Below are positions 44,048 to 49,726 of a DNA stretch of 64,000 nt, one piece after another; positions within the stretch are counted from its first letter, which is position 1; each line of letters starts with the position of its first letter. The stretch is from a virus: the IMG/VR virus record IMGVR_UViG_640753020_000004, one strand, 5' to 3'. The position numbers were made by a program, and so were the translations under genes. Below the pieces are notes generated by a model. That model searched no databases. It was not told where the DNA came from and was given only the letters and a program-made list of their open reading frames with translations.

Positions 44048-46030
44048 CTATAAAAATATATCTTCTTCAAAACTAGATTCTTCTTCAATTTGATTCTTCA
44101 GTTTAACACATTCATCGTAATTGAATATATATTTTTCACGTGATAGATTAATCTTATTACTATGGTTGAAAACAATTAAAAATTCATTAAGCAGACCAAA
44201 AGTTTCTTCTTCATTTGTGGTATTTTCATTTTCTATACTTAATATATATTTATCACTATCAAAACTTTCAACAGATCTATATAAATCAATTAAATCATCT
44301 TCACTTCTAACCCTCTTTACTATAGAAGAATTTTTGCTAGTCAATAAATCTATCAGCACATCCAAATCTTTATCTTTGCTATAGCATCCAATTGCCATAT
44401 TAAAATACTTAGTGTGTATAATGCGACGTTTACTTAACCTAGACTTATCCCATTGTTCAAAAATATCACTGCTTATATACCTTTTTCCCGATTTATCTTT
44501 ATCAAAAAATCCTATATAAACTTCATCATAAATAAAATTTATATTTTTTCTTATATCCAACACTCGTCTATCATAACTCTCATATTTTTTGTCTGTATAC
44601 GAACTATCATAATATTCAATAAACTCTTTTATAATTGGATAAACTATTGCTTTTCTAAACTCCTTATAATCTATATCATAACAAAAATCTAATACATTAT
44701 AATACTTAGATATTTTTTCTCCTTGTATCATTGTCCATAAATACACATCTTGTTTCTCCTTTGAATCATAGCAAATATAACTCGCCGCAAAATATTCTTG
44801 AAATGACTTGTGAATCCATCTATATTCAACGCCATCTTTTATAAATATCGGAACAGCATGAACAATATCATAAATGAAATCATTTGCTTTAAACTGTATT
44901 CCTACCGCCATTGATTTCGCTTTATTTACTATTTTAATAAGCTCCTCCTTGCAATAACTTATCCCTTTGCTTAATGTAATAAATCCTAATATTCTAAGCA
45001 CCCTATGAAAATCCTCTATATCAAGTTTGCTATTTTTAGGATGTACATAGGCTCCTCCTTTAGTTCTATCATGATCCTGAAATAAAGCATCATATACTTG
45101 CCTATAAAATATTTGTTTTTTGTAAGGAACTACCCTTTTATATTGAAAAGCTATATAAAGTAATGAAACCATTAAAGGATTTACCAAAAATTCATCAATT
45201 ATTCTTAAATTTTCTTCACCATTAAGACTTCTTATTAATTCTTTTGATAGTTCTCCATTATTGTCATATTTACAAATTAATTCGTATGCTTCCTTTTTAG
45301 TTAATGCTTTTATATCAAACCTTTGAAAATCTGAAAAACAACTGAGAGCATTTTCATCTCTAGATGATATCACAAAATTATTACTCAAATTTTTTGTAGT
45401 TGAAGTTTTTGATATGAAATTTTGTAGATTTTCTGTAACTTCTTTCTTGTTTTCATCTATTATCTCATCATATCCATCAAAGAAAAACACGAAACCACCT
45501 TCTTCAATTAAATCTAAAATCTCCTTTTTACTAAAATATTCTTTTATGCCATTAATTTCACTAACAATAAAATCAATTATAGAAGTATCTACTTTTAATT
45601 TTCTTAGTTCTATTAACACCGGAATACCCTTATTTTCTTTTATAATACTCAGATATAAATATTTTAATATAGTTGATTTCCCCATTCCAGCACTATCTAC
45701 CAATAAAACTTTGCTATAATGTGGTACAAAATTATCATGATATCTATCTATACAAATTCTAACATTATCTTTATTATTTGTTGAACATTTTGATACATTT
45801 AATGGTATGTATAAATCATCTATAGTCTTTTGCTGATTTTTAAAAGCAATAGTATTCATATATAAATTGCTATTATACGAACGCTCCATATATTCATTAA
45901 ATTTATCTTCAAAGCCCAATTTATTATTAATATTTAGTAGTTCTAGCCGCGGCTTTATATATGTACTTATAACTAATTTTATCATTTCACTTATACCAGC
46001 AGTAACTGCTATCTTTGTAAATTCTTCCAT
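44048..46030 (-). CDS. NACHT-family STAND NTPase (bacterial NLR-related, effector-less type)
   Basis: Walker A DSAGMGKST, PVLIELR, Walker B FFFDGYDE, ISSR, NPL, W.HKSFQEYFAA. Confidence 0.9.
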   Translation of the reverse strand: MEEFTKIAVTAGISEMIKLVISTYIKPRLELLNINNKLGFEDKFNEYMERSYNSNLYMNTIAFKNQQKTIDDLYIPLNVSKCSTNNKDNVRICIDRYHDNFVPHYSKVLLVDSAGMGKSTILKYLYLSIIKENKGIPVLIELRKLKVDTSIIDFIVSEINGIKEYFSKKEILDLIEEGGFVFFFDGYDEIIDENKKEVTENLQNFISKTSTTKNLSNNFVISSRDENALSCFSDFQRFDIKALTKKEAYELICKYDNNGELSKELIRSLNGEENLRIIDEFLVNPLMVSLLYIAFQYKRVVPYKKQIFYRQVYDALFQDHDRTKGGAYVHPKNSKLDIEDFHRVLRILGFITLSKGISYCKEELIKIVNKAKSMAVGIQFKANDFIYDIVHAVPIFIKDGVEYRWIHKSFQEYFAASYICYDSKEKQDVYLWTMIQGEKISKYYNVLDFCYDIDYKEFRKAIVYPIIKEFIEYYDSSYTDKKYESYDRRVLDIRKNINFIYDEVYIGFFDKDKSGKRYISSDIFEQWDKSRLSKRRIIHTKYFNMAIGCYSKDKDLDVLIDLLTSKNSSIVKRVRSEDDLIDLYRSVESFDSDKYILSIENENTTNEEETFGLLNEFLIVFNHSNKINLSREKYIFNYDECVKLKNQIEEESSFEEDIFL

Positions 46031-46059
46031 ACATTGCTTACCCCCTTGTTTGTATTAAC

Positions 46060-46122
46060 CTTCTACAAAATAACCCAAAATTCCTCCTAAATTTTAGAGG
46101 AATTTAACATTTTATGTTGAAT
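46060..46122. promoter_or_regulatory. Back-to-back sigma-H-like promoters for DUF2188 (+) and NACHT (-)
   Basis: Plus: AGGA (46098)-N17-GAAT (46119). Minus: AGGA-N18-GAAG with TTTTGTAGAA. The -35 boxes form an inverted repeat. Confidence 0.55.
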
Positions 46123-46123
46123 A

Positions 46124-46375
46124 TTGGTATTGAAGGAGGTGATTGCTGTGGGTAAAAATCAACATGTTACTTATAATAAAGATGATAACACTTGGAATGT
46201 AAAAGGTGAAGGCAATTCTAAAGCAACTAAAATTACCAACACCAAACAAGAAGCTGTTAATATTGCTAGGAAAATAGCCAATAATCAAGATTCAGAATTA
46301 GTTATCCATGGAAAGGATAATAAAATCCAATCCAAGGATAGCCACAGACATGATCCTTTTCCACCAAAAGGTTAA
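46124..46375 (+). CDS. DUF2188 protein
   Basis: NQHV...W.VKGEG..KAT..TKQEA...AR.IA.NQ..ELVIHG..G-type motif, HDPFPPKG. Confidence 0.9.
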   Translation: MVLKEVIAVGKNQHVTYNKDDNTWNVKGEGNSKATKITNTKQEAVNIARKIANNQDSELVIHGKDNKIQSKDSHRHDPFPPKG

Positions 46376-46527
46376 TTTCTATCATAATTAGGAGTTAGCC
46401 TTATCCTATAACCACTAGCTGCGTCAGCATCTTCATTTGTTATTTCAGCTATGGTTGTATGATTTTCTTCGTCAGTTTCAACAACTATTTTAGTATATTT
46501 ATCTGATAACACATCTATACTCTCCAT
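46372..46527 (-). CDS. Small acidic protein (51 aa), convergent with DUF2188
   Basis: Open frame MESIDVLSDKYTKIVVETDE..; RBS. Confidence 0.55.
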   Translation of the reverse strand: MESIDVLSDKYTKIVVETDEENHTTIAEITNEDADAASGYRIRLTPNYDRN

Positions 46528-46534
46528 TATATTC

Positions 46535-46696
46535 TCACCTCACCCTCCTAACAGCACCCTTGACCCTCCTGTAGCACTCATGCCGTATCAATTTTTCTAT
46601 ATCAGAAAAGGAGAGGTATTCGCCTCTCCCTGGTTTGTCTTTATTTAGTTTTCTATCCTGGTTAAGCTTTTCTTTTAAGATTTCTCTTATCTTCAT
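46535..46696 (-). CDS. Small basic phage protein (53 aa)
   Basis: MKIREILKE..LSFSDIEKLIRHECYRRVKGAVRRVR; GAGG RBS. Confidence 0.6.
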   Translation of the reverse strand: MKIREILKEKLNQDRKLNKDKPGRGEYLSFSDIEKLIRHECYRRVKGAVRRVR

Positions 46697-46883
46697 ACCT
46701 CTCACCTATTTCTTTTTTACGTAAGAAGAGTATATCTGAAATTTAAATATTAGTGTAAAAAGGAGATATGTTAAACAGATATACTCATAGCAAGTAACTA
46801 TCTGGAGGTTAGTTACACTTATATTCATATATATGCTCTAACTTTAATATTTATACACTCTCTAATGATTCTCAACTCTTATT

Positions 46884-46911
46884 CACAGATTTGATATTTT
46901 ACTCATAGTAT
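46884..46911 (+). promoter_or_regulatory. Sigma-K-like (mother-cell) promoter
   Basis: CACA-N16-CATAGTAT upstream of the Arg-rich gene. Confidence 0.5.
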
Positions 46912-46941
46912 GACATTGTAAACAAACTTACGGAGGTACCT

Positions 46942-47232
46942 ATGAGTATCAATGATTCTAATGACAACTCCAATGACAAAGTTGAAAATTCTTATGACTT
47001 TGGAGCTTCCATGTATTGCCCATACTGCTCAATGCCCTATACTGGACCAATCCAAGATGAATATATAGATGTAGATCCTTATGATAAAGACTTTGATGAA
47101 AATTTTGATGATGACTTCAATCCCGGATATAGACAAAGACGTCGTAGAAGACGTAGGCGTAGACGCAGAAGGCATAGACGTGGGTTCCCTCTTTGGCCAT
47201 TAATATTTTTCTACGACGACTGGTATTGGTAA
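46942..47232 (+). CDS. Spore-coat/exosporium-like protein (acidic N-terminus, CPYC, poly-Arg, aromatic C-terminus)
   Basis: GGAGG RBS; RQRRRRRRRRRRRRHRRGFPLWPLIFFYDDWYW. Confidence 0.6.
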   Translation: MSINDSNDNSNDKVENSYDFGASMYCPYCSMPYTGPIQDEYIDVDPYDKDFDENFDDDFNPGYRQRRRRRRRRRRRRHRRGFPLWPLIFFYDDWYW

Positions 47233-47358
47233 TAAAAAATATTTTACACTTTATAAATATACTTAATTTAATCATTATAAAAAATAAGCACCCTAAATAA
47301 TGAGTGCTTATTTTAATAATATTATTTTTTAAGGATAGAATCTTGATACATCAATTTC

Positions 47359-47615
47359 TGGCGGTTGCATTTTAAGTTTTAAGTGCCCTGCAACCACAGA
47401 CACAGACTTAAATTTACATTTGGTGGGAACCTAATTTATAAGCCATTTTTTTATTATATACATTACTTGTTACAATCCAATGTCCTATGTGACAACTATT
47501 TGTAAACAATGCAAAATAGACACTGCATTAACAGTGCCTATCTCTGACATACACATATATAGTTTTATTTTATTTGCGGTTTCCCGCATTGGTAGCTATA
47601 CTTTAGGCTATAGCC
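47359..47615 (-). ncRNA. Cluster of hairpins including two tRNA-acceptor-like minihelices ending in NCCA
   Basis: GGCTATA-8-TATAGCT-A-CCA (47615-47590); GGTTGCA-19-TGCAACC-G-CCA (47395-47359); GCGG-GAAA-CCGC; GGCACTG/CAGTGTC. Confidence 0.45.
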
Positions 47616-47627
47616 AAACCTGTATAC

Positions 47628-47924
47628 TTAAGAAAGAATAATTCTATATTTCATGCCACCATTAAAATTAAAAATCAATTCTTTATTCGTAAAACTAATA
47701 TCCAAAACTCCATCTTCCGTTATCGTGACCATTGGAGCAATAGACTTTACGCCAACGTCACACCCACACTCGAAAAGTGTAATCGTTGATTCTGCTACAC
47801 CTTTACTTTTGGGTTTTCCCCAATCTTCTTCCTTGAAATCTTCTATGCAGAATACTCTCTCTATTTTATTATTATCTATGATATTACATGCTTTCTCAAA
47901 AGAAATGTCCATATTTTCCCCCAT
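47628..47924 (-). CDS. Hypothetical protein
   Basis: Open frame with a GAGG RBS. Confidence 0.55.
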   Translation of the reverse strand: MGENMDISFEKACNIIDNNKIERVFCIEDFKEEDWGKPKSKGVAESTITLFECGCDVGVKSIAPMVTITEDGVLDISFTNKELIFNFNGGMKYRIILS

Positions 47925-48030
47925 ACATCCTCTTTAATATTATCCTAATATATAGTACTATTTCCTTTGAGTAAAAGCAAGGCCCCATTTAACCCTGGAG
48001 CCAGAGGTTTATTTTAAGAGGGTATTAAAA

Positions 48031-48477
48031 TTAAAATTTAACTTTATTTTCATTTGCCAATCTTCTCGGAGTGTCCCATGTAACTACAGGAGCAACCTCT
48101 TTATTTATTACTATATCCCCGTCAGGATTCGTTTTATATATAGACCTATTCTTTTTTACAAACGCACTATCACCTATATATTTATTTGCTTCATAGTTAA
48201 CTGCCTTTACCACCTCTCGTCTACATGTTAAGGCAACCCTATGTTCACATTTTAAATTACTAAAATTTCTTTGGATGCATTTTTCTACAGTATCTTTTTT
48301 AATATTTAATTTTCTAGCAATCTCAGGGGCTGTTAACCCATCTAAATACAAAATCTTAACTTCTTCTTTATTTAACACAGCTCTCAAATCATCAGCTCCT
48401 AAAAAAGAATATAGTTCACCCAAACCATAAAAGTGGACATGTTTTATTTTTACCAAATTGAATTCTTTGAATTTCAT
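48031..48477 (-). CDS. HTH DNA-binding protein (true start probably internal, near LNKEEVKILY)
   Basis: LYLDGLTAPEIARKLNIKKDTVEKCIQRN HTH. Confidence 0.65.
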   Translation of the reverse strand: MKFKEFNLVKIKHVHFYGLGELYSFLGADDLRAVLNKEEVKILYLDGLTAPEIARKLNIKKDTVEKCIQRNFSNLKCEHRVALTCRREVVKAVNYEANKYIGDSAFVKKNRSIYKTNPDGDIVINKEVAPVVTWDTPRRLANENKVKF

Positions 48478-48481
48478 TTAT

Positions 48482-48570
48482 ATTATATACTATTTCTTAA
48501 TGTATTTTGTCCCAACTTTGTCCTATTTTTGTCTCAAATTTGTCTCATTTTTGTCCTATTTTTGTCTCAA
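48482..48570 (-). promoter_or_regulatory. Late promoter with six tandem 11-bp activator-binding repeats
   Basis: GGACAAA/AGACAAA units at an exact 11-bp period (GTC at 48509, 48520, 48531, 48542, 48553, 48564), then TATAAT (48487-48482); directly downstream of the RinA/ArpU-like gene. Confidence 0.75.
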
Positions 48571-48607
48571 GATTTTTTAAGATTAAAAAAGGCAACAGCA
48601 TTATTTT

Positions 48608-49078
48608 TCAGCTATTACCATACACCCCTTCCCACTTAACAATATCCTCCAGTATATCCTCTCGCCACCTATAGGCAGTGCTTCTCACGCCACCATACAT
48701 TTCATTTGCTATCCACCCAACACCCTTGTTTAGCTTGTACTTATAAATAATAAATTGCATAATTTCTTCTGATAGTGGAGGGACTGTCAGGACTTTCTTC
48801 AACAGAGCTGTATTTCTTTTTAACTGCCTTATCCTGGACATATTCTTACGGAATTTTCTATTTACATATTTTAGTTCACTCTTAAGCTCCTTAATTTCTT
48901 TTGCATCTTCCTTTTCACTCGAGTGCTTTATATCCCACTGGATACTTTCCTCCTGATCCTGCAGGTCTTTACATTCCAATTCCAAAGCTTCCATCTCTTT
49001 CAAATCCCTAAAATAGCCATACAGCTTACCTTCTGTTCTTTTAAATGTTTCTTTGTCCAACATACAGTTCCCTCCCAT
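48608..49078 (-). CDS. Late transcriptional activator (RinA/ArpU-like)
   Basis: FKRTEGKLYGY N-terminus; C-terminal HTH (YKYK...WIANEM..RSTAYRWREDIL); last gene before the late promoter. Confidence 0.75.
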   Translation of the reverse strand: MGGNCMLDKETFKRTEGKLYGYFRDLKEMEALELECKDLQDQEESIQWDIKHSSEKEDAKEIKELKSELKYVNRKFRKNMSRIRQLKRNTALLKKVLTVPPLSEEIMQFIIYKYKLNKGVGWIANEMYGGVRSTAYRWREDILEDIVKWEGVYGNS

Positions 49079-49111
49079 GTACTTATTTAATTATGTCTAA
49101 TTTCTAACCCC

Positions 49112-49726
49112 TCACTTACCCATCTGCTTCAAATCATCCTTAAAAGCCCTGGAATTACAAATCATATTGACATATTCTTTTATTTTAAGCTTCGGAACCT
49201 TAGTACTTTCCTTTTTCTTCTCTATATCAACATCAATTTGTTTTATGGTTAGGTTAAGAGAATTAATTTCTTCCTGCAGCAATTGGATTTTATCAAAATA
49301 CCTTTCTCTTTCCAGAGTTTTGGCATTTACATAATCGACTATGGATCTTTCACTTTCTTCTAAATCTTCCTTCAGTAAATTTATTTCCATCAGAAGATCC
49401 TTAACAATATTTCTATTGGTTTTCCCAGGGAACCCAAAGTCTACTTTAATAAGTGTAACAATTACTGATTCATCTTTACTCAAAACAAGGAGTATATCAT
49501 CCTTCACGTAAAATCTCCTGACTACCTTATCCTCACCAATCCGGTCCTCTATTAAGAAATCAGAATAAGTAAATATCTTATTTACATCCTGTATTATACG
49601 TTCATTATTGGCTGCCACATATTCCTGGACAGCAAAGTTACCAGTTATACCTTTCACTCTTTCTACATATCTCGTTTTGCAGTGTTTGGTCAAATCTATA
49701 TGTTTACGTTCTGCCATTACTTCCAT
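49112..49726 (-). CDS. Hypothetical phage protein
   Basis: Open frame, LTKHCKTRYVER motif, C-terminal coiled coil. Confidence 0.6.
   Translation of the reverse strand: MEVMAERKHIDLTKHCKTRYVERVKGITGNFAVQEYVAANNERIIQDVNKIFTYSDFLIEDRIGEDKVVRRFYVKDDILLVLSKDESVIVTLIKVDFGFPGKTNRNIVKDLLMEINLLKEDLEESERSIVDYVNAKTLERERYFDKIQLLQEEINSLNLTIKQIDVDIEKKKESTKVPKLKIKEYVNMICNSRAFKDDLKQMGK

Follow-up and report, generated by a model that had tools for sequence, protein, structure and literature searches.

Phage leaders are known to give rise to small RNAs that carry an acceptor-like helix followed by CCA. The C4 RNAs of P1 and P7 and the CI RNA of P4 are of this kind; they are processed by RNase P and control transcription termination in their own operon. 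In lambda, the Q protein binds its promoter at the spacer position. Among dispersed intergenic elements, BOX combines A, B, and C modules in varying ways. Firmicutes also carry sibling small RNAs with C-rich motifs, such as LhrC1-5 in Listeria and RsaE and other Rsa RNAs in Staphylococcus (PMC4211561, PMC2790875).

The locus compared with these systems here lies in a 64,000-nt stretch of viral DNA, referred to as the window (IMG/VR record IMGVR_UViG_640753020_000004), whose own genome is that of Clostridium kluyveri DSM 555. The region at 47359-47615 lies in a 350-nt gap composed as a mosaic of three dispersed modules, A, B, and C. We tentatively interpret it as two members (A, and C driven by B) of a family of modular, multicopy small transcription units, and we put the chance of this being correct at a little under even. 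The best reading of A and C is an uncatalogued multicopy small-RNA or leader family. In the order in which the minus strand is read, the region is laid out as follows.

47628..47924, minus strand: 98-aa ORF without a family match, ending immediately before module A
47513..47626, minus strand: module A, with an H-type pseudoknot, an N-CCAA tail, a GNRA hairpin, an A/U-rich linker, and an intrinsic terminator
47452..47523, minus strand: module B, a portable promoter predicted from sequence alone
47404..47446, minus strand: variable 5' part of the predicted RNA, including GGUUCCCACCA at 47431-47421
47281..47410, minus strand: module C, with a pseudoknot core, an RCCA tail, hairpin P3, an A/U-rich linker, and an intrinsic terminator

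A preliminary description had presented this region as an array of tRNA-acceptor-like minihelices ending in NCCA. Its two main hairpins are present on the minus strand as claimed, one reading GGCUAUA, an 8-nt loop, UAUAGCU, A, and CCA (47615-47590) and the other GGUUGCA, a 19-nt loop, UGCAACC, G, and CCA (47395-47359), and so is the GAAA hairpin GCGG-GAAA-CCGC (47587-47576). The further GG-initiated stem that it listed does exist, as the 14-bp terminator hairpin at 47544-47513. The supposed third 3' end holds in its letters only: GGUUCCCACCA is found at 47431-47421 with no complementary 5' strand upstream, and lies within the unpaired 5' part of the predicted RNA; paralogues keep only UAGUUCCCC or AUGCCCCC at this site and not CCA.

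By itself, the pattern of a 7-bp stem followed by N and CCA is not above chance. When both strands were searched for such stems with at most one G-U pair and a loop of 3-25, the window held 19 instances compared with 15.3 ± 3.6 in Markov shuffles, and the whole-genome average was 20.6 per 64 kb. The two hairpins are taken as real because they are conserved and covary across more than 100 paralogous and orthologous copies. Judged by the pairing in these copies, each minihelix is stem 2 of an H-type pseudoknot and not a free minihelix. In module A, which begins right after the stop codon of the 98-aa ORF, the elements are placed as follows.

47621-47618 with 47608-47605, minus strand: stem 1, AGGU with GCCU, the latter inside the stem 2 loop
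47615-47609 with 47600-47594, minus strand: stem 2 (the first minihelix, 47590..47615), GGCUAUA with UAUAGCU
47593 and 47592-47590, minus strand: tail, A and CCA
47576..47587, minus strand: hairpin with a GNRA (GAAA) tetraloop
47513..47544, minus strand: intrinsic terminator of 14 pairs followed by a T run, at the end of module A and of the upstream operon

Fourteen copies of module A were detected in C. kluyveri DSM 555 by nhmmer. The covariation check called for by the preliminary description was positive in an alignment of 18 copies (alignment A2), where 91.9% of positions were paired compared with 25-46% in slid controls and compensatory changes occurred at 10 of the 16 pairs, including both crossing helices. 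Stem 2 varies as GGCUAUA/UAUAGCU, GGCUCC/GGGGCU, and GGUAGGA/UCCUACC, while stem 1 switches between AGG/CCU and CCU/AGG among copies. The GNRA hairpin (helix 3) is 85.6% paired, with compensatory changes at three pairs, and the fold z-score of the module is -4.9.

The crossing helices bear on the suggestion that these are collapsed prophage tRNA genes which have lost their D, anticodon, and T arms. The arms are indeed missing, as had been noted, and the 7-bp stem with N and CCA is the only feature that recalls such an origin, which we regard as ruled out to within a negligible probability. The loops hold the partner strands of a second helix, thus forming a pseudoknot. ARAGORN detected no tRNA in the window and Rfam no tRNA (RF00005) at the gathering score or at E <= 10, and neither GGTTGCA nor GGCTATA occurs at the 5' end of any of the 60 tRNAs of C. 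kluyveri. The proposal that homologous loci might hold full tRNAs was not borne out either, as none of 41 has a tRNA in place of a module and two have an ordinary tRNA nearby. The NCCA look is the conserved 3' tail of a pseudoknot and does not reflect tRNA ancestry.

The second minihelix belongs to the pseudoknot of module C (47359..47403), the parts of which are listed below.

47403-47398 with 47388-47383, minus strand: stem 1, GUGUCU with GGGCAC
47395-47389 with 47369-47363, minus strand: stem 2 (the second minihelix), GGUUGCA with UGCAACC
47382-47370, minus strand: A-rich loop 3
47362 and 47361-47359, minus strand: tail, G and CCA
about 47359-47337, minus strand: hairpin P3, variable, with a C/U-rich 3' strand
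47314-47279, minus strand: intrinsic terminator

Lack of conservation of the stems and CCA ends had been named as the outcome that would speak against the minihelices, which survive this check. Across 109 distinct module C copies (alignment A4, which was fitted to a model that contains stem 2), 99.4% of cells at the 13 pseudoknot pairs are paired versus 34-41% when slid. RNAalifold recovers stem 2 and the terminator. Since the stems are highly conserved, double-sided covariation is seen at only 3 of the 13 pairs; the closing pair of stem 2 is GC in 61, AU in 30, and GU in 18 copies, and one stem 1 pair is UG in 77, CG in 17, and UA in 13. Two U-G pairs are conserved in 106 and 77 of the 109 copies. 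Such G-U pairs would be A-C mismatches on the opposite strand, and the structure is therefore assigned to the strand that carries the promoter and terminator.

The tail is likewise retained, as NCCA in 81 of the 109 module C copies and as CCA in 16 of the 18 module A copies. In module C its bases are C in 84%, C in 91%, and final A in 100% of copies. The conserved tail raises the second suggestion of the preliminary description, that of a functional tRNA mimic or processing signal. The pseudoknot with R-CCA would then imitate the top half of tRNA in some 200 copies across the genus, with stem 2 (7 bp) as acceptor set on stem 1 (6 bp) as T stem and the tail as 3' end. A cut by RNase P, as in the C4 and CI RNAs of P1, P7, and P4, or the action of another CCA-reading factor would release a stable RNA, or the RNA would serve as a decoy for a tRNA-directed enzyme. 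We consider this improbable. R-CCA is the family consensus tail, the A and C pseudoknots differ in sequence and end in the same tail, the 13-bp coaxial stack that we infer has nearly the length of a tRNA top half (12 bp), and CCA is encoded in all 60 host tRNA genes. However, the tail is internal, with the CCA 60-80 nt upstream of the transcript's terminator, and 28 of the 109 module C copies have ATCA, ACTA, GACA, or similar instead of NCCA. The tail "N" and its first C can pair with an upstream GU in 85% and 84% of module C copies, and in the stack it is the 5' strand that runs on without a break, the reverse of tRNA. The stems occur in no host tRNA, and Rfam gave no tRNA, C4, or tmRNA match; for C4 (RF01695), this applies at E <= 10 in the window and E <= 1 in eight other copies. 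If true, such imitation would release or time small RNAs and late transcripts, or soak up a tRNA-directed enzyme, and would constitute a new class of bacterial tRNA-like element.

Other roles for module C were considered and rejected. A coding reading is open in some copies and broken by indels, with no conserved start or RBS. For a riboswitch-type switch, in which loop 3 and stem 2b would pair with the loop and 3' strand of the terminator, the pairing is about as strong as in shuffled sequences (mean z -0.19, 32 copies), and for a switch between stem 1b and the terminator 3' strand, no co-variation was seen in one variant copy inspected by eye. No conserved alternative antiterminator pairing was found.

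Upstream of the module C core lies module B, with the following promoter-like elements.

47506-47494, minus strand: TTTACAAATAGTT
47480-47475, minus strand: -35 element, TTGGAT
47475-47467, minus strand: palindrome TTGTAACAA, in the spacer
47458-47453, minus strand: -10 element, TATAAT

These elements suggest that module B is a promoter, with a predicted transcription start at about 47446. There are 23 copies of it in the C. kluyveri genome, and across the genus 59 of 110 C cores have the signature GTAAYAR-N7-9-TAYRAT no more than 130 nt upstream. Of the same 110 cores, 102 have a terminator or a T run. The variable 5' part between the predicted start and the pseudoknot has a sole stretch in common with paralogues, UUAUAAAuUAG-UCCCC, for which the partner strand is absent.

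The region is far from unique. The 391-nt stretch at this locus gave 42-47 BLAST matches in its own genome, and each of the 19 other genomes of the genus also yielded matches. Module C counts in C. kluyveri DSM 555 range from 32 (covariance model R1) to 35 (nhmmer), and every full copy there lies between an upstream promoter module, B or B', and a downstream terminator. With covariance model R1, the C core was detected in 19 of the 20 genomes of the genus, at 2-33 copies each, and 117 family genomes yielded only three weak single matches outside it. The family is confined to the Clostridium kluyveri/ljungdahlii/tyrobutyricum genus and is found hardly anywhere outside. Chromosomal units have unrelated housekeeping genes as neighbours, and in about half of all cases a unit points towards a convergent gene. 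A 75-aa ORF inside some B...C cassettes has no family match. In a comparison for an empty site at larC-crcB, the insertion proved to be shared by the closest species (G005, 97% identical), and synteny was absent in the next one (G012).

Dispersal on this scale invites the view that the modules are a selfish or neutral DNA repeat (BOX-, REP-, or MITE-like), or a gene-less IS200/IS605 derivative with a guide-RNA scaffold, and that the likeness to promoters and terminators is incidental. The modular A/B/C build recalls pneumococcal BOX, copies are many (0 to 33 per species) and cluster in arrays, their orientation is strongly biased by replichore, and the C. kluyveri genome has two Y1 transposase and three to four TnpB-like genes. 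No module match lies beside any tnpB or Y1 gene, however, and the conserved G-U pairs point to an RNA from one strand. The core is retained at 70-93 bits across species that are highly divergent elsewhere, the prophage position is fixed, and an unsystematic look noticed no terminal inverted repeats or target duplications. We give this view a slim chance. A possible link to IS110 was dismissed as coincidence: a 392-aa IS110-family transposase near one C-like copy is present in three identical copies with unrelated flanks.

Existing catalogues do not list the family. Rfam 15 gave no relevant match at the gathering score in the window and five further loci of the same genome, nor did permissive scans (E <= 1-10) of the window copy, eight loci in seven related genomes, and one prophage contig; the only matches were ordinary tRNAs and a fluoride riboswitch, all outside the modules. 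GenBank phages showed no BLAST match to the stretch or to the packaging genes. The family was not described in the literature searched (C. kluyveri small RNA, start sites of C. ljungdahlii/autoethanogenum, and sequence strings). One study reported 126 predicted small RNAs in the same C. kluyveri strain (Chen et al. 2011, PMC3025663).

In prophages the modules occupy a fixed place. The neighbouring genes in the window are listed here.

48608..49078, minus strand: "transcriptional regulator" gene (phrog_36), a candidate late regulator
46942..47232, plus strand: convergent Arg-rich ORF between module C and the phrog_3928 ORF, without a family match
46535..46705, minus strand: 56-aa basic ORF (phrog_3928), which in related prophages is the next gene past the terminator of module C

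Seven IMG/VR prophage contigs share the order A-(B)-C, with a phrog_36/RinA-like gene on one side and the phrog_3928 ORF, HNH/integrase-like genes, terS, terL, and portal genes on the other. Two phrog_36 homologues (L178 and L169) weakly match RinA TIGR01636, with E values of 6e-4 and 7e-3, both below the curated cut-off. Ahead of module A, a second prophage also has a homologue of the 98-aa ORF, and the copy at C1:57141 has a 3' remnant of it. In four loci (L175, L178, L024, and L167), the phrog_3928 ORF starts 20 nt past the end of module C, whereas a 575-bp insertion separates the two in the window. The module C terminator has A and T runs on its flanks and, by these, is predicted to be able to serve both strands. 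No tandem 30-45-nt repeats of a ToxI-like array were found, and the neighbours included no PADLOC or Pfam toxin family.

This placement agrees with that of a late leader, as four loci have a regulator gene, a terminator, and a first late gene without a promoter before the latter. It is possible, if doubtful, that the pseudoknots are processive antitermination elements, either put-like (acting directly on RNA polymerase) or nut/Q-like (acting through a phage protein), which let polymerase from phage promoters pass strong terminators and reach the packaging genes; on this view, what the chromosome carries are relics or portable promoter-insulator cassettes. The rinA-like gene always stands on one side of A-(B)-C and the late genes on the other, and the 20-nt gap between terminator and first late ORF in the four loci leaves no space for a promoter, so a cis-acting leader fits better there than a free small RNA. 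Phage leaders have two or three terminators in series, TTGTAACAA is conserved within the promoter spacer, module A contains a boxB-like GNRA hairpin, and the near-invariant stem sequences suggest a conserved macromolecular partner. On the other hand, read-through would be pointless at the roughly half of chromosomal units, and at the window's own unit, that face a convergent gene. No N-, Q-, or LoaP-like antiterminator was recognised among the neighbouring genes, where the only matches were to phrog_36/RinA-like and sigma region 4/GerE-like families, and units also sit between ordinary genes, e.g., larC and crcB.

The small-transcription-unit reading, which we prefer, starts from a common anatomy. 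A conserved promoter of type B or B' comes first. After it, about 40-90 nt of variable 5' sequence, which often includes a C-rich run and occasionally a small ORF, lead into a near-invariant H-type pseudoknot with a 6-bp stem 1, a 7-9-bp stem 2, and an A-rich loop 3. Next come an R-C-C-A tail, which is single-stranded, and a hairpin that varies and has one C/U-rich strand, and a strong intrinsic terminator closes the unit. This anatomy, the copy numbers, the strand-specific pairing at the RNA level, and the distribution are established at the level of sequence. The units would be transcribed as RNAs of about 170-220 nt, their promoters, ends, and lengths being predictions. The invariant pseudoknot would act as a scaffold, or as a handle bound by a conserved factor of the cell or the phage, and copy specificity may come from the variable 5' part and the C/U-rich strand, by analogy with sibling small-RNA families. 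In temperate phages of the genus, A-B-C makes up the leader that separates the rinA-like regulator gene from the first late gene; its terminators would also insulate the late operon, and late expression would require read-through.

If transcribed as predicted, the units constitute an undescribed structured RNA family in the clostridia that industry uses for acetogenesis and chain elongation (C. kluyveri, C. ljungdahlii, C. tyrobutyricum, and their relatives). The fixed late-leader slot ahead of promoterless genes points to unstudied gating of late genes in Gram-positive temperate phages. The near-invariant pseudoknot with its RCCA tail gives pull-downs, RNase P assays, and structural studies a well-defined handle, and the conserved promoter and terminator modules could be genetic parts for clostridial hosts. 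For annotation, these N-CCA hairpins should not be labelled tRNA remnants.

Compared with described systems, the modules share with GP20-b (Rfam RF03003) and ToxI the form of compact pseudoknot RNAs near terminator positions in phage genomes, and with ToxI the order of array, terminator, and ORF. They differ from GP20-b in giving no Rfam match at E <= 1-10, and from ToxI in lacking 30-45-nt tandem repeats and an adjacent ToxN, AbiQ, or any PADLOC family. In contrast to C4 and CI RNAs, the clostridial units have their CCA at an internal site and vary in it from copy to copy. Target boxes complementary to them were not found, and they have Gram-positive clostridia as hosts.

BOX of Streptococcus pneumoniae and REP/BIME are also dispersed, strongly folded intergenic repeats that affect neighbouring transcription, whereas the clostridial modules hold a full promoter and terminator, have stems that covary as RNA pseudoknots, and show no sequence relation to them. 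The lambda pR'-tR' (6S RNA)/Q and HK022 put leaders, late or early, have a similar layout. From a promoter, about 170-200 nt of leader run to a strong terminator, all of it between the late regulator gene and the late genes; the promoter spacer contains a conserved element, and the RNA ahead of the terminators is structured. Unlike these leaders, the clostridial units have no recognised Q- or N-like protein and also stand alone on the chromosome, often facing convergent genes, and their fold is a pseudoknot instead of the two stem-loops of HK022 put.

The sibling small RNAs of Firmicutes resemble the clostridial units in having several to many paralogues of about 100-200 nt, some of them in tandem, each with its own promoter and intrinsic terminator, and in joining a conserved scaffold to C-rich stretches able to pair with Shine-Dalgarno sequences. 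The clostridial RNAs, which are predicted from sequence, have no sequence or Rfam relation to them. They are set apart by the modular swapping of promoter and body, by the fixed late-leader slot in prophages, by copy numbers that reach 33 per genome, and by a nearly invariant H-type pseudoknot that ends in an RCCA tail.

The prophage runs on the minus strand of C. kluyveri DSM 555, with genes in the order phrog_36 regulator, sigma region 4/GerE-like protein and 98-aa ORF, followed by a gap of ~350 nt. 3' of the gap are small ORFs, including that of a 56-aa phrog_3928 protein, then a NACHT/SNaCT5 NTPase gene and terS, terL, portal, and head morphogenesis genes. The plasmid contig of this genome shows 100% identity to the plasmid of C. 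kluyveri NBRC 12016 (NC_011836.1). Iterated nhmmer delimited three modules in the gap (copy numbers are nhmmer counts in this genome):

47924-47628, minus: 98-aa ORF, bounding the gap on its 5' side
47626-47533, minus: module A, ~95 nt, 14 copies
47615-47590, minus: hairpin GGCUAUA, 8-nt loop, UAUAGCU, then A and CCA
47587-47576, minus: GNRA-type hairpin GCGG-GAAA-CCGC
47544-47513, minus: terminator hairpin, 14 bp
47523-47452, minus: module B, ~72 nt, 23 copies
47410-47281, minus: module C, ~130 nt, 35 copies
47395-47359, minus: hairpin GGUUGCA, 19-nt loop, UGCAACC, then G and CCA
47314-47279, minus: second strong terminator
46705-46535, minus: phrog_3928 ORF, 56-aa basic protein

A second copy of at least 3.4 kb of the region (G000:C1:1971010-1974400), 100% identical to 45750-49140 of the window, is located 68.3 kb upstream; this reflects either a large duplication or the presence of two nearly identical prophages.

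The core of module C is a textbook H-type pseudoknot, in which the loop of stem 1 (GUGUCU/GGGCAC) contains GGUUGCA, which pairs with UGCAACC (stem 2) across an A-rich loop of 12-13 nt. Pairing holds in 99.2% of cells in an alignment of 49 copies and, in an alignment fitted to a model containing stem 2 (111 copies, 109 distinct, at least 17 genomes), in 99.4% vs 34-41% with slid partners. From full-length copies, RNAalifold independently predicted stem 2, here of 9 bp, as well as the terminator. Stem 2 is closed by GC in 61, AU in 30, and GU in 18 copies, and one stem 1 pair is UG (77), CG (17), or UA (13); few pairs truly covary, owing to the strong conservation of module C. Module A has the same design in a different sequence, with a GNRA hairpin after the pseudoknot. 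Its stem 1 alternates between AGG/CCU and CCU/AGG, its stem 2 reads GGCUAUA/UAUAGCU, GGCUCC/GGGGCU, or GGUAGGA/UCCUACC, compensatory changes occur in 10 of 16 pairs, and 91.9% of cells are paired vs 25-46% when slid. On the opposite strand, the conserved G-U pairs would read as A-C mismatches; the structure thus belongs to the promoter/terminator strand, i.e., to an RNA.

Stem 2 is followed by NCCA in 81 of the 109 distinct C copies, with ATCA, ACTA, GACA, and similar tails in the remainder (by position over all C copies: G/A, then C in 84%, C in 91%, and A in 100%), and by CCA(A) in 16/18 A copies. Being present in both, the CCA tail is a real feature common to two differently sequenced pseudoknots, and its conservation is lower than that of the stems. 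The hairpins at 47615-47590 and 47395-47359, which the preliminary description read as tRNA-acceptor-like minihelices, and the GAAA hairpin at 47587-47576 are correctly placed, and of that reading the idea of a functional structured element holds up; a proposed third 3' end, GGUUCCCACCA at 47431-47421, is present in sequence but has no partner strand. Their significance lies in membership of a conserved structured family and not in the pattern alone: a 7-bp stem with a loop of 3-25 nt, N, and CCA was counted 19 times across the window vs 15.3 ± 3.6 in shuffles (genome mean 20.6 per 64 kb), and by itself carries no weight.

The accompanying suggestion of collapsed tRNA genes was rejected, since neither stem is found in any host tRNA (60, each with CCA encoded) and no tRNA replaces a module at 41 homologous loci. 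ARAGORN detected no tRNA and Rfam no match in the 64-kb window, and with every test contradicting it, the probability of a tRNA origin is negligible. Conservation of the RCCA tail would suit an acceptor mimic or RNase P signal, but the tail is internal, 60-80 nt before the terminator of the predicted transcript, which counts against such a role, considered unlikely. In ~85% of C copies, the N and first C of the tail are able to pair with an upstream GU.

Module B is a predicted promoter (-35 TTGGAT, 16-nt spacer, -10 TATAAT) with a conserved TTGTAACAA in the spacer and TTTACAAATAGTT upstream. A second type, B', precedes other C copies and shares the core GTAACAA-N8-TATAAT, so that every full C copy in this genome has a predicted promoter ~45-90 nt upstream and ends in a terminator. 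The units are found singly or in tandem arrays (A, then B'-C, then B-C). Two paralogous cassettes have, between B and C, a 75-aa ORF with a strong RBS of its own (L031:1366-1593 and L038:3494-3721, both minus; no Pfam or PHROG match), which indicates that B and C act as portable 5' and 3' ends; shorter B...C cassettes resemble deletion derivatives retaining the same 5' UTR hairpin. A "D" unit (L033:4140-4340, G000:C1:304139-304339), directly 3' of a C unit and just 5' of a fluoride riboswitch and crcB, has a B'-type promoter, a different RNA body of ~140 nt, and its own predicted terminator. The D body is found elsewhere too, e.g., 3' of the array next to tRNA-Ser. The promoter module thus serves at least two RNA families. 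An IS110-family element of 1566 bp (DEDD transposase, 392 aa) is present in three identical copies with unrelated flanks (G000:C1:3023559-3025124, 3375621-3377186, and 3446060-3447623); one of them lies 83 nt from a minimal C-like unit that has a different terminator and a TTGACA-17-TATACT promoter of its own.

Within its own genome, the 391-nt stretch gives 42-47 partial matches, and the remaining genomes of the genus all match it as well (19/19). With a covariance model of the C core, copies numbered 32 in C. kluyveri DSM 555, 33 in G005 (97% identical at the larC-crcB locus), 20 in Clostridium sp. BJN0013 (G012), 18 in G016, 15 in G013, 11 in G003, 10 in G011, 2-8 in each of 12 further genomes, and none in one 700-contig assembly, i.e., presence in 19/20 genomes. 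Among 117 genomes of other Clostridiaceae, the model gave three weak single matches only. A scan with a short core pattern matched C. ljungdahlii, C. ragsdalei, C. tyrobutyricum, C. luticellarii, C. aromativorans, C. moutaii, C. lapidicellarium, and Ca. C. eludens, and non-clostridial matches were about as numerous as expected by chance. Eight loci from seven related genomes and one prophage copy gave no match in permissive Rfam scans, nor did the literature searched contain a description of the family, which appears to be undescribed. Modular build and variable copy number might point to a selfish repeat, an explanation considered unlikely and opposed by the strand-specific RNA pairing.

Apart from two exceptions, copies in C. 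kluyveri below 0.56 Mb are oriented on the plus strand and those above 1.97 Mb on the minus strand. The genes on either side are unrelated (larC/crcB, chemotaxis receptors, EamA, ABC-2, MarR-GNAT, UvrD-type helicase, crotonase, LD-carboxypeptidase, PFOR), and for about half of the units the gene ahead is convergent. Locus L032 (G000:C1:54893-58518) carries tRNA-Arg, tadA, tRNA-Ser(cga), an A/B'-C/B-C array, and a terS fragment, and resembles a degenerate prophage left at a site of integration into a tRNA gene, reduced to RNA modules and a piece of a terminase gene. Amid other arrays, a 57-aa ORF (L029:1844-2017, minus; G000:C1:2958343-2958516) bears a Spo0E-like signature by eye, SQMLDSMLNKY; it adjoins a terS fragment and a pair of phrog_3928 copies, so that several prophage remnants appear to be clustered at 2.93-2.96 Mb.

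Modules were present in 10 of the 13 IMG/VR contigs matching the core pattern, seven of these ten in the order A-(B)-C. At the prophage loci L178 and L169, the block lies 3' of a phrog_36 gene weakly matching the RinA late-activator family and is followed by the phrog_3928 ORF, an HNH or integrase-like gene, and terS, terL, and portal. Just upstream of a predicted TGTAATATAAT promoter reading into module A in related prophages are three to four direct repeats of AGGAATTA (L169:1700-1790, L178:2880-2960), candidate binding sites for the rinA-like activator. The phrog_3928 ORF was downstream of a module C terminator in 13/13 places found by tblastn and is probably the first late-operon gene. At four loci its start lies 20 nt past the C end and immediately 3' of the T run, with space for an RBS, which is present, but not for a promoter; judging from this layout, the late genes of these phages could only be reached by read-through of the module C terminator. 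In the window, 575 bp with a convergent Arg-rich ORF separate C from the phrog_3928 ORF. The 20-nt gaps would fit a cis-acting antitermination leader, which we regard as rather unlikely given the convergent chromosomal copies; an RNA-only switch between pseudoknot and terminator was looked for and none was found.

Alignments and predicted signals together show self-contained units that run from promoter to terminator and all include an RNA-level pseudoknot. We tentatively favor, as somewhat short of an even chance, that these would be transcribed into RNAs of ~170-220 nt, with the invariant pseudoknot and RCCA tail as a scaffold or binding handle. Specificity may come from the variable 5' part, where many copies have a C-rich run (e.g., UUCCC in the window), and from the third hairpin, through its C/U-rich strand. 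In phages, these units may serve as late leader and insulate the late operon. The layout thus proposed for the clostridial units is the same as that of the sibling small RNAs of Firmicutes.
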